Shown here piece after piece: positions 14,993 to 62,234 of a stretch of DNA of 64,000 bases. Location: positions 233,403-297,402 of the forward strand of contig CP174360.1 of the NCBI GenBank assembly GCA_045401155.1, written 5' to 3'. Under the pieces are notes generated by a model. That model had not been told where the DNA came from. It ran no database searches and saw only the letters and a program-made list of their open reading frames with translations. Position 1 is the stretch's first letter. Every line of letters starts with the position of its first letter. A program made the position numbers and the translations under genes. Source of the stretch: Candidatus Minusculum obligatum. GTDB taxonomy: Bacteria; Patescibacteriota; Minisyncoccia; Phycocordibacterales; Phycocordibacteraceae.

Positions 14993-15100
14993 TTATTCTA
15001 TCCGAGATCTCCGAGATAGGTTATAAATAAAGCATATATCGGTCACCGAGATATCCGATAAGTCAGTAAAAGTAAGGTAAATAGAGCTTGGAGTGGTGTA

Positions 15101-15133
15101 AAAGCCCAGGAAACACAATTCCTGGGCTTTTTG
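15101..15133 (+). terminator. Rho-independent terminator
   Basis: AAAGCCCAGG-aaacacaatt-CCTGGGCTTT followed by TTTT, about 110 nt downstream of the stop at 14992. Confidence 0.55.
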
Positions 15134-15656
15134 TACAAGTCTTTGTAGAGAAAGATTCTTTATATACTCTTTCTTTGCTTAAGCAACTTATATCCTTAGG
15201 AGTTTTTTATTTAAAAATATCTCGGATACATATATATAGGTATAAGGGCAGGCGTATCTTCAAATATTAAGACCCTCAAGTTTTATTTTTTTATTGATTT
15301 ATATAGCTATTCTTTCAGTTCGTTAAAATTTTGTGTCGCAAAACAGCTTATATAAATTTACTTTATAAAAAATCCATTTCATCATTTCGAGTAAGTGTTT
15401 TTTGTTTGAACTGGGTATTTAAAATACGTTTCTAGTACAGCAGGTTTATGTGTAGTGTTTCTTTGGAGAAATATTTAATACTTTTCAAAGTAAATTTTGC
15501 TTCGAAATAAGAGGTTTAACAGTTTAATTTTTTATAATTCTCGGTAGGAAAACTTTTCTACGTAAACTACGTATTTATTAAAAAAGTATCCACATACAAA
15601 GTGCGTCAATACGGGAAATATTAGGTAAAATAATAGGGAAATCGTATATCCGTACT

Positions 15657-21600: not shown

Positions 21601-24600
21601 ATATTATTCTCCGAGCGGGCAACTTGAGTGTTGGTACAACAAGCCCAGCTGGGAAGTTGCATGTAGAGGGGTCCGGAACACAAAATGTTTTGGTTAAAGG
21701 TATTGGCAGTTCAGATCAGACAATACAATTTGGTCGTTCAGATCTTGCAACAAACTGGGTTGTTGGGCGTGATAATACAAGTAGCCGTTTTGGTATTGAG
21801 TACTTTTCTGAAGTTGGAGCAAGTCAGCTTACCGATAATTCCGTGTTCACCATTCTTCAGGGTGGAAACGTAGGTATTGGAACCACAACACCAGCACACC
21901 TCCTTGATGTAGATGGAGACTTCCGAGTAGGAGAGGCAGGAAGTTCAGACGCCTTCTTTGTAGATGCAACAAATGCATACATTGGAGTTGGTACTACAGC
22001 GCCAACTTCAAATCTTCATGTTGCTGGAACTGGAAACACTTTCCTTACAGTTGAGGCTGTAAATGGAAATGCTGTGCAGTGGATTTTGAAGACTGATAGC
22101 GGTAACCGTCGTTTTGTGGCTACTGATAATTCAAATGTACAACAATCTCAAATTCACTTTGCAGGGCAGAGAGAAATTGATTTCATTGGGGATTCTGTAA
22201 ATGATCCACTTGGAACATTTGAGGGCGGGAAGTTTGCGGTAGGAAAGACAAGTACACCAAACTTTGGTCTCGAGATTGCAACAAGTACTACAAACGGTTG
22301 GTTTGGTATTACAGATTCAACAGCTGGAGACATCTTCATTGTTGATGGTTCAGGAAACGTAGGAATTGGTACCACTACGCCAGTTGCAAAGCTTACCGTG
22401 CTGGACACATCGGCAGGTGCAGAAACGTTTGCGTTGTTTGGCCAGAACTCATCAGGTAGTGCGGGTACTGGTACTGGAATCAGGCTCGCACCGAGTGCTT
22501 TCTCATCAGGAGCAACGGTTCGAGCATTTGATATTGTTGCGGTAAATGATGGCGCAAATACCATTGATCTTGATTTCAGAGGTTCAAGTGGAGGAAGTCC
22601 AGCATCGCGTGTGCGAATTACTGGTGCTGGAAACGTAGGTATTGGTACTACTACGCCAGACGCAAACCTTTCTATTGTTAGTTCATCAGGAAACGATGCA
22701 ATTGTAAAGATAGAAGGAATACATAATGCTGTACCAGCTATTAAAATTACAGATGTAAGTGATAGTTCAGGAGGAATTGCACAAGTGATTCTTACTGGAA
22801 GACGTTTAGATGCAAATGTATCAGGTTCATTTGCAGGTAACTTTGCAGTAGGAAAACATTACAGTGGTGGTGCTGTTACAAGTGGGCAAAGGTTGGGAAG
22901 GTTTTTGTTTGGAGGAAATCATACGGATGGAACAATTGATAATCTTCTATACTCAGCAGGGATTACTGCAGTTGCAGAAGGTACGTTTACTAATGCCACA
23001 ACCATGCCAACAGGACTTGCGTTTTATACTGGCTCTGCAGGAGTGGCGCCAGGTACACCAAATGTAGAGCCTGGTACAGAACGTCTGCGTATTGATAATA
23101 GTGGAAACGTAGGTATTGGCACTCAAGCTCCAGGACGTAAGTTTGAGGTGGTTGATGCAACACAGCCGGCAATAAATGAAGTTGGATCATTTGGGGTTGG
23201 CGCAAGTGCTACAGAACAGGTTCGTATCGGGTACGATACCGCAGGTAGTGATTATGGGTGGATTCAATCTGCTGTATTTGGCACAAGCGCGACTAGTCTC
23301 TCACTTAATCCAAGGGGTGGAAACGTAGGAATTGGTACTACAACGCCATCTACAAAACTTGTTATTGCTGGGGCAAATTACAATGGAGAGCCAACCCACA
23401 AAGCAAAAGTGTTAATTCAAAATGATAATGCTAGCCAAACATTAAATAACACGGGAGGTATCGAATTTAGGTTAAGTGGATTTGGTTCAGGGTATGGATG
23501 GCGTATTGGAGGGTGGGACCTTGCTGCGTCTGGTGGAGGTGCGCCGTATGTGTGGGAGTTCCGAGGAAACTCTGCAACATGGTCAGAGCAGATGCGCCTT
23601 ACTGCAGATGGAAAGCTTGGTATTGGAACCACGAGTCCAACAGAGAAGCTTGAGGTGTATGGAGGAAAGATTTCAGTAGATTCTGGCGGGGCAACAGACA
23701 CAGAGTATCTAGAGTTTAGTTCTAGTGGAACAACGATTGGAGGAATTGGAAGAGACACAAATGATCTTGTGCTTTCAAGTCCATTTGGTATTCGACTTAC
23801 TGAAGGAAGCACGGATGTGCTGACTGTTGCGGGTGAAAATGTGATTATTGGTGGATCAAGCTTTGCCGGGCAAAGGGTGCAGATTACTGCAGATGCTGCG
23901 GTGCCGCTTGCGCTAAATCGTACAACAGATGATGGTGTGCTTGTCGATTTCTATCAGGCAACAACTGCTGAAGGATCAATTTCTGTTTCTGGAAACACAG
24001 TATCGTACAATGCCTTTACGGGGTCTCACTACGCAACTACAAATGAAAATATTCAAAAGGGACGCCTAGTTACCTTTACAGGAAATAATGCTCGCCTGAA
24101 TGGAAATCCAAGTTCTGAAATTTTGTATGGTATTACAGAGTCTTCAGTAGAAAACTCATCAAAGGTGTTGGGGTCAATGCTTGCGCTGGAAAGTCCAAGT
24201 AAGGTTCATTCAAATACAAATCCGTACCTTGTAATGGCGGTTGGTAACGGTGAAGTGTGGGTGGTAGATGAGGGAGAGAACCTTGAGCCAGGAGATTATC
24301 TTATTTCTTCAGATACGCTTGGGCATGCAGAGAAAGATACAGGAGCATATCCAATTTCACATATTGTTGCGCGTGTAGCAGAGCCAGTAGATTGGAGTAC
24401 GATTTCTGCAACCGTGGATGGAAAGAAACATGCGCTTGTAAGTGTTACGTTTGAGCAGTTTGATAAGCCAAACGGTATTAGTGTTGATGCGCTTGGAAAC
24501 GTAGGAATTGGAACAAGTGCGCCAGAGTACAAACTGCACGTTCTTGGGGATGCTGCTGCTACAAGCTTTGTAAACATTTCAACTCGTGAACAAAAGAAAG

Positions 24601-27413: not shown

Positions 27414-27878
27414 ATGAAAAAAGGATTTACACTCATTGAATTGCTTGTGGTGGTTGCCATCATTGGCATGCTTTCATCTGTAGTGCTTTCTTCTTTGAAC
27501 ACTGCTCGTGCAAGTGCTCGTGATGCACGTCGTGCACAAGATGGGAAGCAGGTGGCTGCTGCACTCGAACTTTACTATAGTGCAAATAATGGATTTCCTG
27601 CCAATGGGGGGACCGGTTGTTCTACAAACTATTGTTTATCTCATATAAGCGCAGCACTTACGCCTACGTATATTCCAAACTTACCTACGGATCCTATTTA
27701 TGGAGACTCAGGAACGTATCCATATCGGTATTGTGTGACAGGGAATGCATTTGAGCTCCTTGTGTACGATGAAGGCCTATCGTCTTGGTGTCATATTAGA
27801 CATGGATCAAATGACTCTGGAAGTGGGTGTTGGATGACAAATGGAGTTCCAAATAGTGGAACTGTTTGGTGTGACTAA
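27414..27878 (+). CDS. Type IV pilin-like protein (prepilin-type N-terminal cleavage/methylation domain)
   Basis: 'MKKG|FTLIELLVVVAIIGMLSSVVLSSLNTARA' is a class III signal peptide with a conserved Glu at +5. It is about 150 aa with C-terminal Cys residues. Confidence 0.85.
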   Translation: MKKGFTLIELLVVVAIIGMLSSVVLSSLNTARASARDARRAQDGKQVAAALELYYSANNGFPANGGTGCSTNYCLSHISAALTPTYIPNLPTDPIYGDSGTYPYRYCVTGNAFELLVYDEGLSSWCHIRHGSNDSGSGCWMTNGVPNSGTVWCD

Positions 27879-27899: not shown

Positions 27900-28619
27900 A
27901 TGCTTGTTACTCCAGCAATACTTCCAAAAAGCTTTGCAGAATTAAGTGAAAAGATCACGCAAATACGCCCATTTGTAAAAAATGTGCAGCTTGATGTGTG
28001 TGATGGGAAGTATGTAGACACAATGACGTGGCCGTATACAGAAGCCGGTCCTTCTGTTGAGGAAATGAAAAGAAGAGGTGAGGTGTTGCCCGAGGCAGAC
28101 ACGATTCACTATGGTGTTGATCTTATGGTTTCGAACCCAGATGAGGTGATCGGTGATTTTATTGCTCTCGGTGCTACGCGAGTCATCATTCATTTCAAGA
28201 GCACTAAGGATTTTAAAAAAACGATTGATCGCATCACTCGTGACTTTGGATACGATAAAGAATTTGCACCAGATCTTCTTTCCGTTGGTATGGCGGTGCC
28301 AATTGACTTGCCACTTACAGAATTTGCACCGTACGTGCAGCATGTAGATTTCATTCAGTTTATGGGGATTGTAGATATTGGAAGACAGGGACAGGGATTT
28401 GATCCTCGTGTGGTCGCAAAGATAAAAGATTTCCATAAGCGATATCCTGACGTAACAATTCAAGTAGATGGTGGCATCTCGCTTGAAACGGCACCTGCAC
28501 TGTTGGGGGCAGGTGCAGATAGATTAGCTGTGGGTTCTGCACTATTTAAAACACCAAACATAGGTCATACTATAAAAGAGTTTGAGAAGCTCTCAGAGCA
28601 ATATGGTATTTACGAATAA
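27900..28619 (+). CDS. rpe: Ribulose-phosphate 3-epimerase family protein
   Basis: 'VQLDVCDGKYV', 'DLMVSNP', 'IHFKS' and 'IQVDGGIS' are characteristic RPE TIM-barrel motifs. Confidence 0.88.
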   Translation: MLVTPAILPKSFAELSEKITQIRPFVKNVQLDVCDGKYVDTMTWPYTEAGPSVEEMKRRGEVLPEADTIHYGVDLMVSNPDEVIGDFIALGATRVIIHFKSTKDFKKTIDRITRDFGYDKEFAPDLLSVGMAVPIDLPLTEFAPYVQHVDFIQFMGIVDIGRQGQGFDPRVVAKIKDFHKRYPDVTIQVDGGISLETAPALLGAGADRLAVGSALFKTPNIGHTIKEFEKLSEQYGIYE

Positions 28620-29070
28620 CAAAGGGTTTACACTTATTGAATTGCTTGTGGTGGTTGCCATCATCGGCATGCTTTCTTCCGTTGTTTTAAGTTCTTTAAA
28701 TCAGGCACGAGCAAATTCTCGAGATGCTCGACGTACAGGTGATATACATTCTATACGTACTGCACTTGAGCTTTTTTATAATGCTTATAACAGGTATCCA
28801 TCATCTGCAGATGGTAATTGTGTTTATAATAACAGCTTTGCTTCAGGTGGGTGTTTACAAGTGCTTGTTTCAAACGGTTTTATTCAAGCTTTGCCAGAAG
28901 ATCCTGTCGGAACACAAACGTACTACTACGATAATTGGTGTCGAGAGATCGGTTCAAATAATCAGAATTTTCGTGTATGGGCAAATGGAGAAACAGACAA
29001 CAATGGTCTTGCTGAAAATTGGTGGTATGAGGAAACAATTGGTGAGACAACGTGTTATGACCCGAGTTAA
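28603..29070 (+). CDS. Type IV pilin-like protein (prepilin-type N-terminal domain)
   Basis: 'MVFTNNKG|FTLIELLVVVAIIGMLSSVVLSSLNQARA'. The start at ATG 28603 overlaps the rpe 3' end by 17 nt. Confidence 0.8.
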   Translation: MVFTNNKGFTLIELLVVVAIIGMLSSVVLSSLNQARANSRDARRTGDIHSIRTALELFYNAYNRYPSSADGNCVYNNSFASGGCLQVLVSNGFIQALPEDPVGTQTYYYDNWCREIGSNNQNFRVWANGETDNNGLAENWWYEETIGETTCYDPS

Positions 29071-35033: not shown

Positions 35034-35534
35034 GTGAGAAAAGGATTTACACTTATTGAACTTCTTGTAGTAGTAGCCATTATTGGCATGCTTTCTTCAG
35101 TGGTACTGTCGTCACTTAATACTGCACGCGCAAATACCCGTGACGCAAGACGCTATGCTGATCTACGCCAAATAGCAAACGCCCTTGAGTTGTATTATCA
35201 AGCAAATGGTCGCTATCCGATACAGACAACGTGGAGAGGGACAACTCCCGGATGTTATGGGACAGGAAGTGATCCAAATACGTCTATTCCAGGTCTTGTA
35301 CCAACATATATACCAGTCATACCACAAGATCCTCGGTGGGTGCCAAACTCGTATTGCTATCTGTATGTTTCGTATGCTCCTTACCAAGACTATAAACTGC
35401 TTGCGTACGGCACAGTTGAGGGTGGTCAGGTACCGGTAAGTGACCCTAAGTCACGGTATGCGGGGTGCTCATCTGGTGGCGCCGCCGAAGCATCCTACGG
35501 GATTGCGTCAAGCCCAACATCAGCCTGTTGGTAG
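35034..35534 (+). CDS. Type IV pilin-like protein (prepilin-type N-terminal domain)
   Basis: GTG start. 'MRKG|FTLIELLVVVAIIGMLSSVVLSSLNTARA'. Confidence 0.85.
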   Translation: MRKGFTLIELLVVVAIIGMLSSVVLSSLNTARANTRDARRYADLRQIANALELYYQANGRYPIQTTWRGTTPGCYGTGSDPNTSIPGLVPTYIPVIPQDPRWVPNSYCYLYVSYAPYQDYKLLAYGTVEGGQVPVSDPKSRYAGCSSGGAAEASYGIASSPTSACW

Positions 35535-41353: not shown

Positions 41354-41427
41354 GCCACCTTAGCTCAGTTGGCTAGAGCGGCGCTCTTGTAAAGCGCAGG
41401 TCCTCGGTTCGATCCCGAGAGGTGGCT
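41354..41427 (+). tRNA. tRNA-Thr (anticodon UGU)
   Basis: A cloverleaf folded by hand: acceptor GCCACCT/AGGTGGC; D-arm GCTC/GAGC; anticodon stem GCGCT/AGCGC with loop CTTGTAA (anticodon TGT at 41388-41390); T-arm CTCGG-TTCGATC-CCGAG; discriminator T. CCA is not encoded. Confidence 0.85.
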
Positions 41428-41437
41428 CAGAGTTTAG

Positions 41438-46028: not shown

Positions 46029-48053
46029 ATGGCAAAAGGAACGCAAGGCGGTAAAGGTAGCTACGGCGCAAAAGACATTACAGTTCTCGAAGGTCTTGAG
46101 CCGGTACGTAAGCGACCAGGTATGTACATTGGTACTACTGGTCCTGATGGTCTTCATCATTTGATTTGGGAGGTTTTTGACAACTCTCGAGATGAGGCAA
46201 TGGCCGGAGAGGCTGATGATATTGAGGTTGCACTTTTGCCTGATCATACGATTCGTGTAGTTGATAACGGACGAGGTATTCCCGTTGATAAACATCCAAA
46301 GACAAAAGTTTCAGCACTTGAAACTATTATGACGACACTCCATGCAGGAGGTAAGTTTGGTGGTGAGGGATACAAGGTGTCAGGAGGACTCCATGGAGTG
46401 GGAGTATCTGTAGTGAACGCTCTTTCAACTATGGTGCGTGCAGAGGTGCACAAAGAGGGGGATGTGTACATGCAGGAGTATGCGATTGGAATTGCACAGG
46501 CGCCAGTTAAAAAGGTTGGAAAGAGTGACCGGCGTGGAACTGTAATTACATTCCGTGCAGATGATTCTATTTTTGAAACAGTTGAATACAACTGGGATAA
46601 GATCGTGTCTCACTTGCGACAGCAGGCATATCTTGTAAAAGGTACGCGCATTTCAGTACTTGATGCACGTGAGAAAGATTTAGATCTTAAGAATGTATTT
46701 TATATTCGAGATTTAGGTGAAGAGATGCCATCTCAGAGTTTTTACTTTGAGGAGGGGCTTCGGTCTCTTATTGGATTTAAGAATCAGTACCAGACACCCG
46801 TACACAAAAACATTTTCTATATAGATCGTCAGATTGAAGATGTGCAGGTTGAGGTTGCGCTTCAGTATGTAGATGATATTTCTTCACGACTTACTGCATT
46901 TGCGAACAATACATACAACCCAGAAGGGGGTACGCACGTAACTGGATTTAAGACTGCGCTTACGCGTACGCTCAATAACTACGCGAAAAAGAATAATCTT
47001 GGCGCAAAAGATGAGGCGTTTACGGGAGATGATGTGCTTGAGGGAATTACCGCCGTGGTCTCAGTAAAGCTTCCAGAGATTCAGTTTGAGGGGCAGACAA
47101 AGGCAAAGCTTGGATCTGTTGAAGCTCGTGGAGCAACTGACACGGTATTTGCAGAAGCATTCTCATATTTCCTTGAAGAGCATCCAGAGGATGCAAAGCA
47201 GATCATTTCTAAAATCACGCTTGCACTTAAGGCACGAAAGGCTGCCAAGGCTGCCAAAGAGTCAGTGCTTCGAAAGGGTGCGCTTGAAGGAATGACGCTT
47301 CCTGGAAAGCTCGCTGATTGTTCTTCACGAACTGCAGAAGATTCAGAGATCTTCATTGTAGAGGGAGACTCAGCGGGAGGTTCTTCAAAGCAGGCTCGAG
47401 ATCGAAAGACGCAAGCCATCTTGCCGCTTCGAGGAAAGATTCTAAATGTAGAGCGGGCTCGTATTGATCGTATGCTTGCATCAGCTGAGATTAAGGCGCT
47501 TGTGATTGCGATGGGTACTGCAATTGGAGATGTATTTGATATTTCAAAGCTTCGCTACCATAAGATTATTATCGCAACAGATGCCGACGTTGATGGAGCG
47601 CACATTAGAACACTGCTTTTGACTCTATTTTATCGATACTTCAAGCCAGTTATCGAGGGAGGGTATCTATATATTGCACAGCCACCGCTGTATAAGATTC
47701 AGCAAGGAAAGAAGATTGATTACGTATATACAGAAGATGAGAAGGCAAAGCTTCTTGGAGAAGGTGATGTAGATCTTGTTGAGGCAAATGATGATGAAGA
47801 TGCAGAAGATGAAGAAGTGCAGAAGAAAAATTCCACAAAGGCTCGCATCCAGCGATACAAGGGACTTGGAGAGATGAACCCAAGTGAGCTTTGGGAGACA
47901 ACTATGGACCCAGAGAATCGTGTGTTAAAGCAGGTAACTATTAAGGATGCACAGGAAGCAGACAAGGTATTTGATATTCTTATGGGTACAGATGTGCCTT
48001 CTCGAAAGAACTTTATTCAGACAAATGCCAAGATGGCGAATCTAGACGTGTAG
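46029..48053 (+). CDS. gyrB: DNA gyrase subunit B (type IIA topoisomerase ATPase/Toprim subunit)
   Basis: 'LEGLEPVRKRPGMYIGTT' and 'HHLIWEVFDNSRDEAMAG' form the GHKL ATPase region. 'EGDSAGGS' and 'PLRGKILNVE' form the Toprim region. 'KIIIATDADVDGAHIRTLLLTLFYRY' is also present. Confidence 0.9.
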   Translation: MAKGTQGGKGSYGAKDITVLEGLEPVRKRPGMYIGTTGPDGLHHLIWEVFDNSRDEAMAGEADDIEVALLPDHTIRVVDNGRGIPVDKHPKTKVSALETIMTTLHAGGKFGGEGYKVSGGLHGVGVSVVNALSTMVRAEVHKEGDVYMQEYAIGIAQAPVKKVGKSDRRGTVITFRADDSIFETVEYNWDKIVSHLRQQAYLVKGTRISVLDAREKDLDLKNVFYIRDLGEEMPSQSFYFEEGLRSLIGFKNQYQTPVHKNIFYIDRQIEDVQVEVALQYVDDISSRLTAFANNTYNPEGGTHVTGFKTALTRTLNNYAKKNNLGAKDEAFTGDDVLEGITAVVSVKLPEIQFEGQTKAKLGSVEARGATDTVFAEAFSYFLEEHPEDAKQIISKITLALKARKAAKAAKESVLRKGALEGMTLPGKLADCSSRTAEDSEIFIVEGDSAGGSSKQARDRKTQAILPLRGKILNVERARIDRMLASAEIKALVIAMGTAIGDVFDISKLRYHKIIIATDADVDGAHIRTLLLTLFYRYFKPVIEGGYLYIAQPPLYKIQQGKKIDYVYTEDEKAKLLGEGDVDLVEANDDEDAEDEEVQKKNSTKARIQRYKGLGEMNPSELWETTMDPENRVLKQVTIKDAQEADKVFDILMGTDVPSRKNFIQTNAKMANLDV

Positions 48054-48054
48054 C

Positions 48055-48351
48055 ATGAAAGCGGTCTTTAATGGACATATTCTTGCAGATAGTACACATA
48101 CAATAGTGATTGAGCTAAATCATCACTTTCCTCCGGATACAGTTAATTTTGAGTATTTGAAAGAGAATGGAAATACTTCAGAGTGTCCATGGAAGGGTGT
48201 TGCTGAGTATTTTGATGTGGATGTAAAGGGGCATGTAATTAAAGATGGTGCGTGGCATTATCCGAATCCTAAAAAGGGTTCAGCACAGAGAGTGGGAGAT
48301 GACTTTACTGGCTATGTTGGTTTTGCTGAAGCAGTAGATATAGTTCCGTAA
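48055..48351 (+). CDS. DUF427-family small protein
   Basis: 98 aa. 'TSECPWKGVAEYFDV' and 'AWHYPNP' resemble the DUF427 conserved CPYKG.A.Y motif. The start lies 1 nt after the gyrB stop. Confidence 0.5.
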   Translation: MKAVFNGHILADSTHTIVIELNHHFPPDTVNFEYLKENGNTSECPWKGVAEYFDVDVKGHVIKDGAWHYPNPKKGSAQRVGDDFTGYVGFAEAVDIVP

Positions 48352-48398: not shown

Positions 48399-49160
48399 TT
48401 AGTTGGTTACGGTGATTTTTACAAATGCGCCGTTATTATTCTCATCTGATTCAGTGACACCGTTATTCTGGTCTACTGCAACTGAGATTTGTAGATCTTC
48501 TCCAACCTTAGATCGGTCAAATCCGATTACGTACTCAATCTTTTCTCCAGGGAGAAGGTTTTGTACATGCTGCTCTTGTCCTTCAAAGATATACGTAGTC
48601 TCTGTAGGCATCACAACATTGAATCGCCAGTTAGTTCCAGTCTCCTTAGTTCCATTGTTTGCTACCTGGAACTTTACTGCAATTCGATCATTTTTTACAA
48701 GATCTGATGTTGGAATAAAGTTTTCTGCTTGTACTCCTCCTACAAGTTTTCCTGTAGCAAGGATTGTTGGCACAAGGTCTGCCAATCCATTTGGATCTGA
48801 CACTGGAGATGGGTTCTGAGTAATTACCTCAGTATCCTCATTTCCTGGTGTAGGAGTAACTGGTGTTGTAGGAGCCTCTGGCTCCTCAGTTTCTTCCTCT
48901 TTATCTTCAAGTACGATAGGGAAGTTTGTATTTGGTGTCTCTGTGTCTACTACAATGACATTCTCATCTTGTACAAAGATAGATGTCACACCAATTACAG
49001 TCGCTGATAGCCCTTCTACTGCTCCATTAACAATAGTTGGTACAAATCGTGCTGCATTTCCCGCAAGTACTACGGCCAAAGTAAGTAGGGTAATGAACCC
49101 AACTACTGCAAGACCATTTACTGCTGCTTGTTTTGTTTCCATATTGCTTATAACGCTCAC
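48399..49160 (-). CDS. Membrane-anchored protein with C-terminal CARDB-like domain
   Basis: An N-terminal signal-anchor 'LAVVGFITLLTLAVVLAG' is followed by a Pro/Thr/Glu-rich linker. The C-terminal 'RIAVKFQVANNGTKETGTNWRF...ESDENNNGAFVKITV' has the CARDB hallmark (E.NE.NN). Confidence 0.6.
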   Translation of the reverse strand: MSVISNMETKQAAVNGLAVVGFITLLTLAVVLAGNAARFVPTIVNGAVEGLSATVIGVTSIFVQDENVIVVDTETPNTNFPIVLEDKEEETEEPEAPTTPVTPTPGNEDTEVITQNPSPVSDPNGLADLVPTILATGKLVGGVQAENFIPTSDLVKNDRIAVKFQVANNGTKETGTNWRFNVVMPTETTYIFEGQEQHVQNLLPGEKIEYVIGFDRSKVGEDLQISVAVDQNNGVTESDENNNGAFVKITVTN

Positions 49161-49219: not shown

Positions 49220-49948
49220 GTGCTCTTGACATTGGGCATGTTTTCGTGTATTAATATGCCGGTAGATATGAGCGACATGAGCACTAAAGCAAACGGTTTC
49301 GCGTACGTGCTAGGTACGATTTTCAAGAACAAATGGAAGTTCTTGGCTTTTTCAGTACTAGCCTTCATCTTTTTTGTATGGATTCTTGGGAAGCTAGATC
49401 TTCTTCCAGAACCTGATACATCAAAGAGTTTAAGTACGATTACGATTGCGTCTGCGGCTGCAGCATTTCCTGTAGTTACAGATGTTGAGGAAGTTGTTGT
49501 TCCGGAAAAGCCACTTCGGGTGTCTATTCCGTCGCTTGATATTGATGTGCGTGTTAACAACCCGTACAAGAGTGATATTAAGACACTTGATGCTGCACTG
49601 TATGACGGTGTGGTGCGGTACCCAGGATCTGGAATGCTTGGAGAGAATGGAAACGTTGTTATCTTCGGGCACAGCTCATACCTTCCGGTAGTGAAGAATG
49701 AATACTTTAAAGCATTTAATGGTGTTCAGAAGCTTTCTACAGGAGATGTGATTGAGGTATACGGACTTGATACCGTGTATCGATATGAGGTTGCGTCTGT
49801 ATATGAGGCGGATGCCACAGATACACGCATTGCTCTTAGTAAGGATAGTAAGAAGCTAACGCTTTCTACATGTAATTCATTTGGTGATTTAAATGACCGA
49901 TATGTAGTAGAGGCGTACTTCGTGGGAAGCACACAGATTTCTTCTTAG
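49220..49948 (+). CDS. Sortase family transpeptidase
   Basis: N-terminal TM 'FLAFSVLAFIFFVWIL', the catalytic His context 'VVIFGHSSY', the active-site 'LTLSTCNSF' (TLxTC) and the downstream Arg 'RYVVEAY' are all present. The exact start among several in-frame ATGs is uncertain. Confidence 0.8.
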   Translation: MLLTLGMFSCINMPVDMSDMSTKANGFAYVLGTIFKNKWKFLAFSVLAFIFFVWILGKLDLLPEPDTSKSLSTITIASAAAAFPVVTDVEEVVVPEKPLRVSIPSLDIDVRVNNPYKSDIKTLDAALYDGVVRYPGSGMLGENGNVVIFGHSSYLPVVKNEYFKAFNGVQKLSTGDVIEVYGLDTVYRYEVASVYEADATDTRIALSKDSKKLTLSTCNSFGDLNDRYVVEAYFVGSTQISS

Positions 49949-50037
49949 AGATCTGTGTGCTCTCCGTGAGGGAGAGTGGAAAGAACATTACAATTGTCGC
50001 CGAGAATATCGGCGACGCAATAGAGAGGAGAATCGAG

Positions 50038-51183
50038 ATGTTCAAATATCTCGCACTCGCCGCGTCGCTGGTCTTTGGACTGGCGACGCCCGCAATTGCT
50101 CAAGTCGGCATGCCTATGTCGTATGAGCTCATGTCTCGTCCAGATGATGGATACTCCCAAGATGATCTCTTTGAGATCCGGGAGCGCCTTATCGTTCAGA
50201 TCGAAGCTTCGCTTCGTCTGGATCCGCTCGGAGACGCCTATATCGTCGGAACTCCGTGTTCGACGCCGAATGACTTTTTTCGTGCGTTTCGGGAATACCA
50301 TCCTGAACACGCTCCGGAAAATGTCGAAGATCTTCCGAGGTTCTTGCGTACGCTTCAACTGATGCGTGCACAAGAGCTCGGAATTCAGGGTGACACGTAT
50401 GCGTCTACGCGCATGATGTGTCACTCTGCAGATTCTTCTTCTTCGGAAGATGAGTTGGATCTCGAAGGTGTCGAGCGAGCCGTGCGTCTGAATGAGTTCG
50501 TGTGGGTTCACCCCAATGGCTCAGTCATGATGCTCGGGGATTGTTCGAACATTGTTCGGGCTCCGGTTACCTCCCAAGAAGCTTCGCCTGTTCCGCCGGC
50601 TCTTGAGGAGCCGTGGTACCAGCAGTGCCTGTTTGTTCCCGTCGGAACACGTCGGGGTGCGTCCTATCAATGGGCACATTTCCTACGCGAACCGATCCCC
50701 GGATCAAACTCGCAGACTTGTCGGGTGCTTTGTCAGGGCGTCTTGCGCAATGACGGAACGCCCCTGGTGGTTGAGGACACATGCATTCGTGCACCGCGTC
50801 CTTGTCAGGATTGCGAATGGGGCGAACAGCCTATTCCTTCGAGGTTTGAGGTTCAGGACAGCTCCCAGTGGGATGCTGAATGGGACCTCACCATGATCGG
50901 CATTAGTGTCGATGATGCACGTCTTGGTGGATACTTCGCAATCTGTGGCTATCAGGATGATCGTGAGCGTACCGGGGTTCCAATTTTTGAACCCAACGAG
51001 CTCGCCGATGCTGCGGATGCCGGAGTCTGGAATCAGGGGATTGTTGTTCCGTACTGGAATCGCGGTCCTACTCGTCAGATGCAGGCAGTGTTCCGTGTTG
51101 GCGACCTGGTGTACTTCCAGGATCGTCGCGGAAACGTCGAGGTTCGGGAAGATCCTTTGGATTTTTCTCGAGGTAATGAGTAG
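50038..51183 (+). CDS. Secreted Cys-rich hypothetical protein in a locally GC-rich segment (probable horizontal acquisition)
   Basis: The start is taken at ATG 50038, where a classic signal peptide 'MFKYLALAASLVFGLATPAIAQ' begins. Codon usage (GCG/CGC/GTC-rich) and GC content differ from the flanks. No recognisable family. Confidence 0.5.
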   Translation: MFKYLALAASLVFGLATPAIAQVGMPMSYELMSRPDDGYSQDDLFEIRERLIVQIEASLRLDPLGDAYIVGTPCSTPNDFFRAFREYHPEHAPENVEDLPRFLRTLQLMRAQELGIQGDTYASTRMMCHSADSSSSEDELDLEGVERAVRLNEFVWVHPNGSVMMLGDCSNIVRAPVTSQEASPVPPALEEPWYQQCLFVPVGTRRGASYQWAHFLREPIPGSNSQTCRVLCQGVLRNDGTPLVVEDTCIRAPRPCQDCEWGEQPIPSRFEVQDSSQWDAEWDLTMIGISVDDARLGGYFAICGYQDDRERTGVPIFEPNELADAADAGVWNQGIVVPYWNRGPTRQMQAVFRVGDLVYFQDRRGNVEVREDPLDFSRGNE

Positions 51184-51232
51184 CATTCGTGTCCGGGCAG
51201 GAAACTGTCCGGACACATCACCTCTCTTTTTT

Positions 51233-54073
51233 ATGATTATGATTTCAAAACCAACAAATATTCTAAGTTATGCAAAAGCACATCCGATTAAATCGGGGTT
51301 ACTTGCTGTGTTTACATTTTTTACGATTCTAGGAACTGGTTTTGGAACACTTTATGTTGTTGCGCCCGACACAGCAGAGGCTGTGCTAGTTGGTAACCCT
51401 TGTTGTACAACTGGTTGGGATCCTTGGGGGCCAGGAGGATGGAATCCTGAACCTGTTATTGATCCAGGATTTCCTGGTGGAGGCGGAGGTGGGGGAACTG
51501 TTCCTGCGCCAGTGTGTTCTCTTACTGTAAATCCAACTTCAATTGTTGAGGGTGATTCGGCAACACTTACGTGGGTAACACGATACGCAGATCTTCTTGC
51601 AATTGATAATAGTATTGGGAACCTTTCTGAGATTACAGGATCAGTAAGTGTTTCTCCTACAGAAACGACAACATATACGCTTGTGGCTCAAAACAGTTAT
51701 ACAGGGCGAACTGTTGAGTGTAATGCAACAGTTACGGTTACTGAGCCACCTGTAGTGCCAGTGTGTACGCTAAACGTAAATCCATCAGCTATTGAGCGAG
51801 GGGGCAGCGCAACCATTTCTTGGACAACTACAAATGGATCAACATTCCGTATTGGAGGTATCGGTGATCTAACTCCAGTATCTGGAGGATCAACCGAGGT
51901 TACTCCAGTTGCTGCAGGTACCTATACATATGTTGGAGTTGTAACGAGTGCAGATGGAAGTACTGCAACGTGTGAAGACACACTTACTGTTACTCCTCCA
52001 ATTGTTGTAAATCCACCAGTGTGTACGCTTGATATTGTTCAAGACACAATTACGATTGGTGAAAAAATCAATATTGATTGGGAGACACGTCATGCGAATA
52101 CTTTTAGTATTGATAATGGAGTGGGAGACATAAATCTTTGGACAGATCCAATTGCGAGTGGATCAGTTTCAACTACTCCAGGTTCAGAAGGGACCATTAC
52201 GTATACAGGAACTGCAACAAATACAGATGGAGATACGGTTGAGTGTTCAGACACGGTAACCGTGCTTCCAATTGGGATTGATACGCCAGCATGTACGCTA
52301 ACAGCAGATAAGTTCTCACTACTTCCTGGTGAGACCACAACTATTCGATGGACGCTTATAAACGTTACAGAAGCAACACTACAGCATCTAGACGCGGTGC
52401 AGATCATCGATCCTACAGATGGATCTCAGTCTGCAGTTGCGGGTACGTATACGCTTCGAGCTGGGAATGGTCTAGCGAGTGTTGAGTGTGAGGTAACCAT
52501 TGTACGGGTTACAGTAGATGCGCCAGCATGTACGCTAACTGCAGATAAACTCTCACTACTCCCAGGAGAAACAACTACCATTAATTGGACTATTGAGAAT
52601 GCCACAGAGGCGACACTACAGCATCTAGACGCGGTACAGATTATTGATCCTACAGATGGATCCCAGTCTGCAGTTGCAGGTACGTACACACTTTCAGTTG
52701 GAAACGGAACGTTGTCTGAAACATGTGAAGTTACAATTGTGCGTATTACTCCAGGAACACTCAGTTGTGATCTAAATATTGATCGAGCAATTATTCGTTC
52801 TGGTGAGACTGCTGAAATTAGCTGGACCACAAACGAGGCGGTAAGTTTTGAGATTAATGGAGAAGACAAACCCCTTAATGGTTCTGAGACTATTCAACCG
52901 CTTGGTGTACAGATCCACACATACACGGGAATTGCGACTGATGCAGATGGAAATACAGTTGAGTGTGAAGACACTGTTCAAGTAACTGGAGGTTCAGGAG
53001 GTGGAGGTCTTTCGTGTGCGATGAGTTTTGATCGATCTGCAATTCGAGCAGGGCAATCAGCAACACTTCGTTGGGAGGTGCGCAATGCCGATGTTAATAC
53101 TATTGAGATCAATCAAGGTATTGGAAATGTAGCACCGCTTGCTTCAGAGGAGGTTCGTCGAAGCGATACTGGTACACATGAGTACGTTCTTACCGCTCGA
53201 GGAGATGGAGATCAGGTTACGTGTCGAGCGACACTAACTGTTTCAGGTGGATCAGGATGTTCTGGAAACTGTGGAGGTGGATCTACACCACAGATCAGTA
53301 TTGATTTCCTTAAGACTCCTGGAGAGCAGGCGCTTGCCTTCGTGACTCTTTCACAGATTCCATATACTGGACTTGAGCTAGGTCCTGTTGGAGCCGTAAT
53401 TTACTGGGTATTCCTAATTGTATGGAGTGGTGCTGTTGCATATCTTGTACTGTTTAAGGCTCTTCCATTTGCACGTCGAAAGCTTGTGATGGTTGGAGAA
53501 GACGTAATGGAGGTGCTTGATGCAAGTAAAGAGGATACAATGTACGCATCTATGCCAGAGGAAAAAGAGCACGTGGAATTTCTACCAAACCAGAAAGGGG
53601 ATGATGCGCTATCTGTAGAAGATATCGTACGTGGCCTCTCACGTATGCATAAGGAAAAGGCTCCAGAGGAGAATGTGCTTGATGAGATAGATGTTGCTGC
53701 TGAGATGGAGCTTCCTCCAGTTGAGAAGGTTGCACCAGTTACTAGTGGGGAAGATATGCGTCTTCTAAATGCAATTATCTCAGGTGATAAGGATGCAAGC
53801 TTTGGAATTCTTCGACGAGTTATCCGAAATGGTGCTCGAGCAGAGGATCTATTTGAAAAAGTCCTTGTGCATCTTGATAGCGCATACCGAGCACGTGTTG
53901 ATGGTGCGTATGTAGATGAAGATGTGCGTCGAGCAACCGCATCTCTCGACACAGCACTTCTTGAGGAGGTTATTACCGCACTTGCTCCGGCAATTGATAC
54001 AACCTACTCACATGCACAAACTGGTGCAAAACTTGCACTTACTCGAGTGCATCAGGTGATTGCGCGTGGTTAA
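51233..54073 (+). CDS. Large surface protein: N-terminal TM, ~8 Cys-bracketed Ig-like repeats, LPXTG-like IPYTG + TM + RRK segment, and a ~230-aa C-terminal cytoplasmic domain
   Basis: The start is taken at ATG 51233 (MIMISKP...), downstream of the GC-rich gene. The repeats look like 'P.C.L...P..I..G...T..W.T......I....G.........V.P..TT.YT..A.N..G..V.C...VTV'. After the repeats comes 'GGSGCSGNCGGG', then 'LSQIPYTGLELGPVGAVIYWVFLIVWSGAVAYLVLFKALPFARRK', then a soluble E/D-rich domain. Confidence 0.65.
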   Translation: MIMISKPTNILSYAKAHPIKSGLLAVFTFFTILGTGFGTLYVVAPDTAEAVLVGNPCCTTGWDPWGPGGWNPEPVIDPGFPGGGGGGGTVPAPVCSLTVNPTSIVEGDSATLTWVTRYADLLAIDNSIGNLSEITGSVSVSPTETTTYTLVAQNSYTGRTVECNATVTVTEPPVVPVCTLNVNPSAIERGGSATISWTTTNGSTFRIGGIGDLTPVSGGSTEVTPVAAGTYTYVGVVTSADGSTATCEDTLTVTPPIVVNPPVCTLDIVQDTITIGEKINIDWETRHANTFSIDNGVGDINLWTDPIASGSVSTTPGSEGTITYTGTATNTDGDTVECSDTVTVLPIGIDTPACTLTADKFSLLPGETTTIRWTLINVTEATLQHLDAVQIIDPTDGSQSAVAGTYTLRAGNGLASVECEVTIVRVTVDAPACTLTADKLSLLPGETTTINWTIENATEATLQHLDAVQIIDPTDGSQSAVAGTYTLSVGNGTLSETCEVTIVRITPGTLSCDLNIDRAIIRSGETAEISWTTNEAVSFEINGEDKPLNGSETIQPLGVQIHTYTGIATDADGNTVECEDTVQVTGGSGGGGLSCAMSFDRSAIRAGQSATLRWEVRNADVNTIEINQGIGNVAPLASEEVRRSDTGTHEYVLTARGDGDQVTCRATLTVSGGSGCSGNCGGGSTPQISIDFLKTPGEQALAFVTLSQIPYTGLELGPVGAVIYWVFLIVWSGAVAYLVLFKALPFARRKLVMVGEDVMEVLDASKEDTMYASMPEEKEHVEFLPNQKGDDALSVEDIVRGLSRMHKEKAPEENVLDEIDVAAEMELPPVEKVAPVTSGEDMRLLNAIISGDKDASFGILRRVIRNGARAEDLFEKVLVHLDSAYRARVDGAYVDEDVRRATASLDTALLEEVITALAPAIDTTYSHAQTGAKLALTRVHQVIARG
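52283..52762 (+). repeat. Tandem 240-bp (80-aa) near-identical duplication encoding two Ig-like repeat units
   Basis: The copies 52283-52522 and 52523-52762 align base-for-base at about 85% ('cgccagcatgtacgctaac(a/t)gcagataa...cagcatctagacgcggt(g/a)cagat(c/t)at(c/t)gatcctacagatggatc(t/c)cagtctgcagttgc'). The antisense ORFs 52090-52407 and 52426-52869 translate to near-identical peptides, which corroborates the duplication. Confidence 0.75.
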
Positions 54074-59607: not shown

Positions 59608-60117
59608 ATGAAACGAGGATTTACCCTGATTGAGCTTCTTGTAGTGGTTGCCATTATTGGAATGCTTTCATCTGTGGTGTTGTCATCTCTAAACCAGGCT
59701 CGTTCTGGTGCTCGAGATGCACGCCGCGCGCAAGATATTAAGCAGTTCCAGGCTGCGCTAGAGCTTTACTATAATGACAATAATTCTTATCCAGTATCTG
59801 GATGGGCACACAGTAGCGGAGGTACAAACTGGACAAATCTACAAACGGCTTTGTCTTCATACATCACATCTCTTCCAACAGATCCGATTAATACAGCAGG
59901 TGGTGCAGGGTATAATAACGATCAATATGTGTATTCATACTATGCATCAGGGTATGGAGGATCGGGACAGTGGTACATGATTATCTGGGAGCTTGAGAAC
60001 TCAAATCAGGCATTTGAGGGTACCGATGGAGTAACTGCATGTAATGGACAAGTATTCCATTATGGTAGTGGAACAGATGGTCGTGTTAGCACCGGTGGAA
60101 CCTGTGCAGGTCAGTAA
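59608..60117 (+). CDS. Type IV pilin-like protein (prepilin-type N-terminal domain)
   Basis: 'MKRG|FTLIELLVVVAIIGMLSSVVLSSLNQARSGARDARR'. Confidence 0.85.
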   Translation: MKRGFTLIELLVVVAIIGMLSSVVLSSLNQARSGARDARRAQDIKQFQAALELYYNDNNSYPVSGWAHSSGGTNWTNLQTALSSYITSLPTDPINTAGGAGYNNDQYVYSYYASGYGGSGQWYMIIWELENSNQAFEGTDGVTACNGQVFHYGSGTDGRVSTGGTCAGQ

Positions 60118-60128
60118 TGTAAATAATT

Positions 60129-60368
60129 ATGGATAACAACGTTCAATTTCAAGATCAACAAAATCAATACACAGTCTCTAAGAAAAAGGGGCTGACACAA
60201 ATGGTGATTAATATGGGGCTTGCAAAAGATGCAAAAGGGGCACAAATGGTGCTTCTCGTGGTTGCGGTTGTTGCAGTTCTTATCGCTGGATTCTTTATGT
60301 TCACTGGAAATTCTGTCGGAGACGGGCAGCCAAATGTGCTTCCTGAAGGACAGTTTATTCCAGAATAA
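60129..60368 (+). CDS. Small single-TM protein, pilin-associated family (paralog of 34803-35030)
   Basis: 'MDNNVQFQDQQNQYTVSKKKGLTQMVINMGLAKDAKGAQMVLLVVAVVAVLIAGFFMF'. Its stop overlaps the start of the next pilin gene. Confidence 0.55.
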   Translation: MDNNVQFQDQQNQYTVSKKKGLTQMVINMGLAKDAKGAQMVLLVVAVVAVLIAGFFMFTGNSVGDGQPNVLPEGQFIPE

Positions 60369-60823
60369 TGAAGAAAGGGTTTACATTGATTGAGCTTCTT
60401 GTAGTGGTTGCCATTATCGGCATGCTGTCTTCAGTGGTATTAAGTTCTCTTAATACAGCGCGAGCTGGTGCTCGAGATGCAAGGCGTCAGCAAGACATAA
60501 AGCAGATTCAGACGGCTCTTGAGCTTTACTACAATGTAAACAATGCATACCCGCTTGAGGTTGGGTGTGACACAAGTAAAGGGAGCGGTTCAAGTGGCTG
60601 CAATAGTTCAGGAACGGATTGGGATGAAAGTAGCTATATTCATAGCGGTCTTGTGCCGGGCTTCATTGCTGATCTTCCTGTTGACCCCATAAACGACAGC
60701 ACCTATTACTACAACTATGAGCCGGGAAATCCCGCAGGGCAAAACTATTGCATCGGTGCAACTCTTGAGGGGGGAGGACGTTTCCGTGTATATGATGGAA
60801 CTCCATCGTATACTAACTGTTAA
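60368..60823 (+). CDS. Type IV pilin-like protein (prepilin-type N-terminal domain)
   Basis: 'MKKG|FTLIELLVVVAIIGMLSSVVLSSLNTARAGARDARR'. Confidence 0.85.
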   Translation: MKKGFTLIELLVVVAIIGMLSSVVLSSLNTARAGARDARRQQDIKQIQTALELYYNVNNAYPLEVGCDTSKGSGSSGCNSSGTDWDESSYIHSGLVPGFIADLPVDPINDSTYYYNYEPGNPAGQNYCIGATLEGGGRFRVYDGTPSYTNC

Positions 60824-61874: not shown

Positions 61875-62234
61875 ATGAGTTCACGAATGCGAATCACAAA
61901 AGGAAAGACGGGAAGCCGTCGATCTCACCACGGGCTTTCTGCACCGCGGCTTTCGCATGACAAGGAAACAGATTCTACACACAAGCGACATCATGTAGAT
62001 CTTGAGACAGGAATGTATCGAGGAAAGAAGATTTTTGAACCTAAAGTAAAAGTAGCTGCACCAGTAGCAGAAGAAAAAGAGGAGAAAGAAAATGTAGTTG
62101 AGGAAGTGGTAGAAGAAGTAAAGGAGACTGCAGAGGAAGTGAAGGAAAAAGTAGAGGAGATCGGAGAGGAAATCAAAGAAGAGATCGAAGAGGTGGTAGA
62201 GGCAGTCACTGAAGAGAAAAAAGAAGAGAAGTAA
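61875..62234 (+). CDS. rpmF: 50S ribosomal protein L32 with long Glu/Lys-rich C-terminal extension
   Basis: 'RITKGKTGSRRSHHGLSAPRLSHDKETDSTHKRHHVDLETGMYRGKKI' matches the bL32 core (RRSH.AL.AP.LS.....G..H..HH....G.YRG.K.). The start may be ATG 61887. The roughly 60-aa EEVKE-type tail is unusual. Confidence 0.65.
   Translation: MSSRMRITKGKTGSRRSHHGLSAPRLSHDKETDSTHKRHHVDLETGMYRGKKIFEPKVKVAAPVAEEKEEKENVVEEVVEEVKETAEEVKEKVEEIGEEIKEEIEEVVEAVTEEKKEEK

Follow-up and report, generated by a model that had tools for sequence, protein, structure and literature searches.

A GC-rich secreted-protein gene in a variable slot behind the sortase gene of Paceibacteria

Introduction

The O-antigen cluster of enterobacteria (galF-gnd) and the capsule locus of pneumococci (dexB-aliA) are hypervariable surface-antigen loci that stay at a fixed chromosomal site and persistently present an atypical GC-content. 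An atypical GC-content is routinely read as the trace of a recent horizontal transfer. In the candidate phyla radiation (CPR), targets of diversity-generating retroelements (DGRs) are common among surface proteins. Here, we analyze a locus of Candidatus Minusculum obligatum that touches on these three cases. It lies in a stretch of 64,000 nucleotides (contig CP174360.1; hereafter, the window) and consists of a GC-rich gene, hereafter gene X, which stands between the gene of a sortase and the gene of a giant surface protein and encodes a secreted protein. The original prediction, made from the letters of the window, described this gene as recently transferred from a donor of higher GC-content and inserted into a surface-protein hotspot. 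Our results support the hotspot and argue against the recent transfer: as in the antigen loci, the gene occupies a fixed site whose alleles vary, and its unusual composition is shared by its relatives at the same position.

Composition of Gene X

The GC-content of gene X (50038-51183, plus strand) is 54.5%, relative to a mean of 43.3% for the window (1146-nt windows; standard deviation 2.6%), which is the highest value in the 64 kb (z = 4.4); each of the top-ranked 1146-nt windows overlaps the gene. With 300-nt sliding windows, GC-content was 0.52-0.58 over positions 50000-51200 and 0.40-0.46 on either side. The predicted GC-rich island was thus borne out, and it indeed coincides with this one gene, with a composition step at the gene borders. 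The anomaly extends to other statistics, for which we compared gene X with the 47 other open reading frames (ORFs) of the window taken as genes. GC-content at third codon positions (GC3) is 0.53 in gene X and ranges from 0.26 to 0.43 in the other 47 genes, and the fit to their pooled codon usage is the lowest of all 48 genes (per-codon likelihood; z = -5.0). The tetranucleotide check proposed with the original prediction gave the same answer, since gene X presented the largest distance from the window (z = 4.8). Its dinucleotide composition is also distinct from that of the window, with observed/expected ratios (o/e) of 1.20 versus 0.79 for CpG, 0.43 versus 0.78 for TpA and 0.87 versus 1.20 for GpC.

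We further analyzed the codons that generate this bias. A-ending codons are shunned in gene X (GTA, 0 vs. 0.35; CCA, 0.07 vs. 0.51; ACA, 0.14 vs. 0.48), the gains are in C- and G-ending codons and T-ending codons are retained; the avoidance of A is the main synonymous rule. Among the four codons expected to be enriched, the shift was clear for GTC (0.37 vs. 0.05) and CCG (0.43 vs. 0.15), mild for CGC (0.19 vs. 0.12) and absent for GCG (0.21 vs. 0.20). Synonymous choice contributes 6.9 points to the GC excess of the gene and the amino-acid sequence 4.3 points; the latter share is explained by a product that is Lys-free and rich in Arg and Pro. GC3 is constant along gene X, and the GC3 of the sortase gene shows no gradient toward gene X (last quarter, 0.467; first three quarters, 0.456; P = 0.78).

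Gene X has the lowest TpA o/e of the window; next come a short basic ORF (61875-62234) that may encode a ribosomal protein and the genes of GAPDH, S2, aldolase and EF-Ts, which is a hint of high expression. Several other analyses of composition yielded little. A principal-component analysis of relative synonymous codon usage was too noisy and did not set gene X apart. We rejected a clustering of Dam/GATC sites, since gene X contains 12 of them and other 1-kb bins reach 10-13. Gene X lacks the motif GGCC, but a Markov model predicts no more than 2.4 occurrences and avoidance in the host is mild (o/e 0.76), which makes the motif of no use as a residence clock. Ordinary translational selection was also rejected: the genes of S2 and EF-Ts fit the average codon usage best and gene X worst. 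At the other extreme of composition, the lowest-GC kilobase of the window (33.5%; positions 15001-16000) corresponds to the start of its largest gene, an ORF of 3430 amino acids (15657-25949).

Conservation and Composition of the Gene Family

We identified four close homologs of the product of gene X among 5.8 billion protein clusters, and a profile search against 1.84 billion representatives returned 123 matches (E < 1e-3), among which no family member was seen outside the position that follows the sortase gene. Relatives of gene X occupy this slot in all of the 10 other lineages with readable flanks, and a sortase gene lies directly upstream of every family member with a readable flank (L001, L002, L003, L004-L006, L008, L009, L090, L091 and L092). 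The conserved gene order is gyrB, a CARDB-domain protein (minus strand), the sortase (plus strand), gene X and a giant surface protein with an [IV]PYTG motif. The GyrB protein of the window retrieved 80 loci of Patescibacteria, the closest being those of UBA3533 (L010; 90% identity) and of a metagenome-assembled genome of Candidatus Wolfebacteria (84%). We scanned 90 sequences downstream of gyrB and found a sortase homolog in 62 of them and a CARDB homolog in 59, in conserved order. Genes of the X superfamily were found in the slot of the GTDB genomes L010, L026 and L032, and an iterative search added L023, L025, L033, L045, L054 and L059. The giant protein directly follows the sortase in 12 genomes, which indicates that the slot gene is dispensable, and the remaining genomes carry other secreted proteins in the slot, many of them small and Cys-rich, without detectable similarity to X. 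No homolog of gene X was found by pattern scans (alignment A1) of GTDB contigs (one genome per species), JGI metagenome contigs and IMG/VR, or by tblastn on phage and plasmid records. Gene X belongs to an uncharacterized family of signal-peptide proteins that we observed only in this slot. We found no description of the locus in the literature on Patescibacteria/CPR and sortases. One further sequence, from Candidatus Wolfebacteria NORP156 (L011, 13440-14760), contains many N bases and no intact ORF for the sortase or the slot gene and still aligns to the window; it may represent a low-quality assembly or a decayed locus.

The GC excess proved to be common to the family. Each of the 18 genes of the X superfamily has a higher GC-content than the remainder of its locus, by 10 points on average and by at least 4.4 points (P = 7.6e-6; Wilcoxon test). 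The GC-content of the hosts at these 18 loci ranges from 0.42 to 0.61, and the regression of X GC-content on host GC-content has a slope of 0.45. Whatever the host composition, X genes present 53-65% GC, a CpG o/e of about 1.0-1.2 and, for most of them, a TpA o/e of about 0.3-0.55. The CpG o/e of family genes spans 0.96-1.23, relative to 0.66-1.47 for their hosts, and TpA o/e is below that of the host in 16 of the 18. As a consequence, the gene stands out as an island only where the host has a low GC-content, as in the genome analyzed here. At third codon positions, ten slot genes of low-GC hosts (the window, L003, L001, L010, L023, L026, L092, L093, L062 and L064) have a GC3 of 0.51-0.59, relative to 0.27-0.40 for their hosts; two of them, L062 and L064, are slot occupants that do not belong to the family. 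The slot gene of L007, whose host was not seen, has a GC3 of 0.44. Higher values were found in hosts of comparable GC3 (0.65-0.67 in L045, L059 and L066; 0.71-0.78 in L025 and L054).

The pattern is also visible without reference to the family. We defined the post-sortase gene as a plus-strand gene starting at most 600 nt after the sortase. Among 49 species genomes of Paceibacteria, 20 have this gene as the one with the highest GC-content in a locus of roughly 20 kb, when 3.3 of 49 would be expected by chance (P of about 1e-11; Poisson-binomial). These GC-richest genes include occupants without detectable relation to X.

Divergence and Recombination at the Slot

The locus L003 can be aligned collinearly to the window along 2.4 kb, with an overall identity of 88.7%. 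This identity amounts to 93.8% at the 3' end of the sortase gene, 86.8% in gene X and 87.8% in the next gene, without any step at the borders. Relative to its 90%-identical ortholog in L003, gene X presents few nonsynonymous changes (dN = 0.05) for many synonymous changes (dS = 0.555), and the resulting ratio (dN/dS = 0.089) indicates that it is a real gene. Gene X was thus inherited along with the adjacent sequence; it is subject to purifying selection and evolves faster than its neighbors. Two antisense ORFs (49945-50511 and 50704-51216, minus strand; 188 and 170 amino acids) were considered as an overlapping antisense gene and rejected. They are codon-aligned shadows of gene X, due to the near absence of TTA, CTA and TCA codons from it, and its dS, above that of the flanks, shows synonymous sites to be unconstrained, which counts against an antisense gene.

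Comparison with the more distant locus L001 gave a sortase dS of about 1.5 and a saturated dS for gene X. The GC3 excess of the slot gene over its own sortase is about +0.13 in the window and about +0.25 in L001. Under a simple two-state decay, which we calculated ourselves, an acquisition that predates the split of the window and L001 would need an ancestral GC3 above 1. Polarized AT-to-GC and GC-to-AT changes between the window and L003 (outgroups L007, L002, L001 and L010) merely mirrored the composition of the outgroups, owing to saturation, and were uninformative. Across loci, the similarity of X is loosely related to sortase identity (Spearman correlation of 0.39), the closest alleles are found in the closest hosts, and in no pair of loci was a close X combined with a distant sortase. 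Both junctions of gene X, with the sortase gene and with the next gene, are present in the independent assemblies L003, L001 and L004, from which we conclude that the window is not a chimeric assembly at this point.

The slot is nevertheless subject to recombination. The window can be aligned collinearly to UBA3533 over positions 36375-57927 (72-82% identity). The alignment includes the sortase gene, the leader and the DNA of the signal peptide; it is interrupted at about 50085-50095 and resumes at 51219-51220, just after a terminator-like hairpin. In between, UBA3533 encodes a different protein of 327 amino acids (GC-content of 0.529, relative to a locus mean of 0.434), of which only the signal peptide resembles X and which shares its type of C domain with P0003, P0004 and L007. 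The two domains of X itself have distinct affinities. The N domain is 83% identical to that of L007, 65% to that of L002 and 39% to that of L001, with no match in L010, whereas the C domain matches that of L001 (57% identity) and neither L007 nor L002. Since the affinities of the N and C domains differ and since the UBA3533 cassette has been replaced, both the individual domains and the whole mature-protein cassette are exchangeable. The slot gene is therefore remodeled through the exchange of whole domains or whole mature-protein cassettes, while the borders stay conserved. The 5' border consists of the leader plus the signal peptide, and the 3' border of the sequence that immediately follows the terminator hairpin. 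These mosaics imply recombination, although no combination of a close X with a distant sortase was caught. The expectation of a surface-protein hotspot was accordingly well founded: the gene after the conserved sortase varies among Paceibacteria lineages, and UBA3533 holds a non-homologous mature protein.

Origin of the GC Excess

We favor the explanation that gene X is a resident occupant of a variable slot of Paceibacteria whose GC-content is maintained by selection bounded by the gene, rather than a trace of foreign origin, and we give this full explanation a probability of about 50%. Its descriptive core, that is, a resident slot gene whose composition characterizes both its family and the slot and that was not recently transferred from a foreign source, can be held with much greater confidence. 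Under this explanation, Paceibacteria (Patescibacteria/CPR) would keep a slot between the conserved sortase gene and the gene of the giant [IV]PYTG substrate, and selection acting on the gene or its transcript, and ending at the gene borders, would hold the GC offset. A candidate agent is the UpA-poor, GC-rich and stable mRNA of a secreted protein that would be strongly expressed and separately terminated. The GC offset would then not be a fading trace of foreign origin. We favor selection on the sequence or the transcript because genes with low TpA are mostly those expected to be highly expressed and because slot genes of many lineages possess consensus promoters, leader hairpins and terminator-like hairpins.

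Several observations weigh against this explanation. The ribosomal and glycolytic genes of the window present neither a raised GC3 nor a raised CpG, so ordinary translational selection is not the agent, and we know of no precedent for a GC3 offset of +0.13 to +0.28 caused by selection on mRNA. The GC3 offset almost disappears in the GC-richest hosts, and two weak members of the family (L029 and L036) have a GC3 below that of their own sortase. The dS of gene X is 1.6-2 times that of the flanks, not lower, which fits an import or a composition out of equilibrium better than synonymous constraint. The replacement of the cassette was directly observed, and some lateral input is therefore certain. 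Finally, the function of the product is read from its genomic context.

Import from GC-richer relatives is the main rival to gene-bounded selection. In this scenario, the cassette or each of its domains was introduced by homologous replacement from GC-richer Paceibacteria before the split of the window and L003, and its GC-content has not yet decayed. The replaced cassette of UBA3533, the nearest genome, with breaks at the borders, the mosaicism of the domains, the dinucleotide signature unlike that of the host and the excess dS are all in line with such imports, and the weak dependence of X on host GC-content is what a shared pool of alleles would produce. Yet each of the 18 X genes exceeds its own host in GC-content, even where the host is among the GC-richest, which implies that no sampled host could be the source. 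Moreover, the GC3 of the ten slot genes of low-GC hosts is clustered and not spread between donor and host values, the closest relatives of X are in the closest hosts without any immigrant allele being caught, and the window and L001 retain their offset despite a near-saturated dS. We consider import within the class possible and somewhat doubtful.

A regional mutational process seems unlikely. Recombination at a hotspot accompanied by GC-biased gene conversion, or a local error-prone repair, could lift both GC-content and substitution rate, and it would agree with the evident recombination at the slot, with the elevated dS of gene X and with an effect that appears to follow the slot and not a particular protein family. 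However, the composition changes abruptly where the gene begins and ends, GC3 shows no trend along the sortase gene toward the slot and is flat inside X, and the crossovers must lie in the conserved flanks, which have the composition of the host. The amino-acid shifts are also selective (Lys falls to zero, while Ala and Gly are not raised), without a general rise of Gly, Ala, Arg and Pro.

A recent acquisition from an unrelated donor of higher GC-content, inserted between the sortase and its substrate, is very improbable. It would account for a GC-content, codon usage and di- and tetranucleotide signature that are atypical in a single gene, and the slot gene is dispensable, as seen in the 12 genomes that lack it. 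Nonetheless, orthologs and paralogous members with the same anomaly stand at the same position in all ten other lineages with readable flanks, gene X diverged together with its flanks, and the searches of GTDB, JGI and IMG/VR and of phages and plasmids returned no homolog. The mobility hallmarks that would accompany a transfer are missing, since there is no adjacent tRNA, repeat or duplicate copy. Regarding the higher-GC donor, no donor lineage was found, all family members with a readable context lie downstream of a Patescibacteria-type sortase and the GC excess is shared by 18 of 18. A chimeric assembly or a contaminant segment, which the compositional step alone could suggest, has a negligible probability, as the same junctions occur in independent assemblies from other samples (L003, L001, L004-L006) and the leader, the signal peptide and the sequence past the hairpin are continuous with host-like sequence shared with UBA3533.

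A broader reading is tentative: Paceibacteria might hold this slot at a composition of its own (about 53-65% GC, no CpG depletion and mostly low UpA), largely independent of the host (42-61%) and even for occupants without detectable homology to one another. If this is true, a dedicated force bounded by the gene would act on the host-contact genes of ultra-small episymbionts, with transcript selection or targeted diversification or repair as candidates, and the island would not be a product of horizontal transfer.

The Encoded Protein

Gene X encodes a protein of two domains separated by a linker (table 1). The predicted Sec signal peptide was confirmed (MFKYLALAASLVFGLATPAIA, with cleavage before Q), and its DNA can be aligned to UBA3533 up to about 50085-50095. 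The expected count of about 12 Cys was too high: the product contains 10. The AlphaFold2 (AF2) model has a mean predicted local distance difference test (pLDDT) score of 82.4. Profile matches to the family center on positions 50-190, in line with the N domain being its most widely conserved part. Alignment A1 and the identity profile both switch at the Pro-rich linker, which is likely the junction of the domain swap.

The mature product contains no Lys at all; the sole Lys of the precursor is residue 3, inside the signal peptide. Since Ala and Gly are not raised in the product, this looks like a specific avoidance of Lys and not an effect of GC-content. In the proteome, Lys represents about 6% of residues; among the family members compared (P0001-P0009, P0016, P0024, P0034, P0037 and P0044), it represents 0-1.4% in those of the closest subfamily and 3-9% in more distant ones.

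The C-terminus (...REDPLDFSRGNE) contains no LPXTG-like motif and no transmembrane (TM) segment. Searches of the product against Pfam-A, NCBIfam and sequence profiles of the PDB returned no match, 69 relatives compared with Pfam gave one weak hit at chance level, and fold searches with the model returned nothing informative. Lacking both a sorting signal and lysine, the product is neither a sortase substrate nor an acceptor of the pilin type. It is probably a secreted partner of the sortase-anchored adhesin in the contact with host cells, a role that would account for its diversification.

Organization of the Locus

The features of the locus are listed in table 1. The region from the end of the sortase gene to the start codon of gene X (49928-50037), which includes the 89-nt spacer between the two genes, is predicted to fold into three hairpins with a minimum free energy (MFE) of -50.4 kcal/mol (z = -6.3). 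A hairpin is found at the position of leader hairpin 1, with some different stems, in L001, L002, L004, L007, L010, L011, L090 and L091, and at the position of leader hairpin 2 in relatives, with stems that vary. The leader motif GAACATTACAA is kept even in L010, the genome with a different cassette. We observed a compensatory change in only one of the 12 predicted pairs of the two leader hairpins within the close group, and a search of Rfam with the leader gave only a chance hit to a microRNA model (E = 1.4). An RNA structure in the leader is plausible.

The terminator-like hairpin is 100% conserved in L003, and analogous hairpins with other stems are present in L007, L093 and L010. A simple terminator scan did not call the hairpin at 51189-51216 because its T-run lies 10 nt from the stem. 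Slot genes of many lineages likewise possess leader hairpins, strong ribosome-binding sites and terminator-like hairpins of their own. Near-consensus promoters (TTGACA-17-TATAAT) occur in the post-sortase spacer of L015, L026, L045, L054, L059-L062, L064, L066, L073 and L083, and a motif GTTCTTT/GTTCTCT recurs upstream of the ribosome-binding site in slot genes of distant lineages.

Table 1. Coordinates of gene X, its domains and the neighboring features in the window.
Feature	Positions	Strand	Basis or remark
gyrB, upstream anchor	46029..48053	+	ORF translation; 90% identical to GyrB of Patescibacteria UBA3533
DUF427 gene	48055-48351		flanked by gyrB and the CARDB gene
CARDB-domain membrane protein	48399..49160	-	Pfam PF07705, E = 3.4e-10
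Sortase gene	49220..49948	+	Pfam PF04203, E = 1.8e-21
Hairpin across sortase stop codon	49928..49961	+	inverted repeat I1, 15-nt arms, 93% complementary; part of the leader fold
Leader hairpin 1 (CTCTCC-GTGA-GGGAGAG)	49960..49976	+	MFE fold
Leader motif GAACATTACAA	49983..49993	+	identical in L003, L007, L010; near-identical in L011
Leader hairpin 2 (GTCGCCG-AGAATAT-CGGCGAC)	49996..50016	+	directly upstream of the ribosome-binding site
Ribosome-binding site GAGAGGAG	50023-50030	+	precedes the ATG at 50038
Gene X, secreted two-domain protein, 381 amino acids	50038..51183	+	ATG at 50038, stop ends at 51183; coincides with the GC-rich island
Sec signal peptide, residues 1-21	50038..50100	+	sequence MFKYLALAASLVFGLATPAIA, cleavage before Q
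Cassette without nucleotide homology to UBA3533 (L010)	50095..51219	+	blastn runs to 50085 and resumes at 51219; pairwise border alignments
N domain, residues 22-176, alpha+beta	50101..50565	+	AF2 pLDDT >90; conserved most widely within the family
Pro-rich disordered linker, residues 177-192	50566..50613	+	pLDDT <50 at residues 179-184
C domain, residues 193-381, mostly beta	50614..51180	+	phylogenetic affinity unlike that of the N domain
Terminator-like hairpin (GTGTCCGG...CCGGACAC)	51189..51216	+	T-run at 51227-51232; sequence
Giant repeat-rich surface protein	51233..54073	+	IPYTG at 53357-53371, then TM segment and basic residues (ARRK)

Among the neighbors, the giant surface protein is a probable sortase substrate judging from its sequence, and the original proposal of a substrate downstream is well founded, as [IV]PYTG, a TM segment and basic residues are found in the giant protein of 22 of 23 loci. 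The consensus of this signal, present in the window, L004, L010 and 19 other loci, is [IV]PYTG[FLIV][ED][AL]GP, followed by the TM segment and basic residues. In many loci the giant protein runs 200-340 residues past the TM segment (about 230 in the window), which is unusual for a sortase substrate. L001 and L004-L006 have no gene at the position of the DUF427 gene of the window. Elsewhere in the window, five paralogous genes (27414-27878, 28582-29070, 35034-35534, 59608-60117 and 60368-60823) start with a type IV pilin-like N terminus, (K/R)GFTLIELLVVVAIIGMLSSVVLSSLN.

Comparison with Known Systems

The class-wide pattern behind the island of the window was unexpected. The same GC anomaly at the same position in dozens of species-level genomes, beyond the saturation of synonymous sites, constitutes a counter-example to the inference of horizontal transfer from GC-content, and it would mislead island-finding software in Patescibacteria genomes. 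The locus also represents a previously undescribed module specific to Paceibacteria, composed of a sortase, a variable secreted protein of two domains and a giant [IV]PYTG-anchored adhesin. Hardly anything is known about how these organisms attach, and the variable component is a strong candidate for what determines their recognition of host cells. If its composition is actively maintained, the locus would offer a tractable way to test for selection, or for biased repair, at the level of one bacterial gene.

The closest likeness is with the O-antigen and capsule loci. As in these, the slot is fixed between conserved genes, the alleles of close relatives are non-homologous or mosaic, the alleles share a composition unlike that of the chromosome, and the product lies at the cell surface or outside it. 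The unit is nonetheless a single protein gene of about 1.1 kb and not a multi-gene sugar pathway, and it deviates toward high GC-content, unlike the antigen loci of low GC-content. In our sample, the alleles also largely track the phylogeny of the hosts, without any exchange between distant lineages being caught. Unlike known clusters for surface antigens or sortases, the slot has occupants that share a composition even when they are unrelated.

The gene content recalls the sortase-dependent pilus and adhesin clusters of Gram-positive bacteria, where a sortase adjoins a giant, repeat-rich LPXTG-like protein, with a smaller secreted protein in between. Gene X differs from the members of these clusters by the lack of a C-terminal sorting signal and of the lysine nucleophile of pilins, and the giant protein, unlike Gram-positive substrates, extends about 230 residues beyond its TM segment.

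Gene X is comparable to DGR targets as a fast-diversifying secreted or surface protein of a bacterium of the episymbiont type. No pair of template and variable repeats was detected, as 49949-51230 has no second copy in the 64-kb window (best match of 14 nt), and the search for a reverse transcriptase was not systematic. In contrast to DGR targets, divergence spans whole domains and is not limited to a short C-terminal variable region.

Finally, gene X shares with classical genomic islands its atypical GC-content, codon usage and oligonucleotide signature and its sharp borders. In contrast to such islands, no integrase or transposase is found among its neighbors (sortase, CARDB and surface protein), and no donor lineage was found. 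The sole tRNA of the 64-kb window lies at 41354-41428, and the sole direct repeat near the gene is 14 nt long (86% identity). Throughout the class, moreover, the gene keeps both its position and its anomaly, unlike a genomic island.

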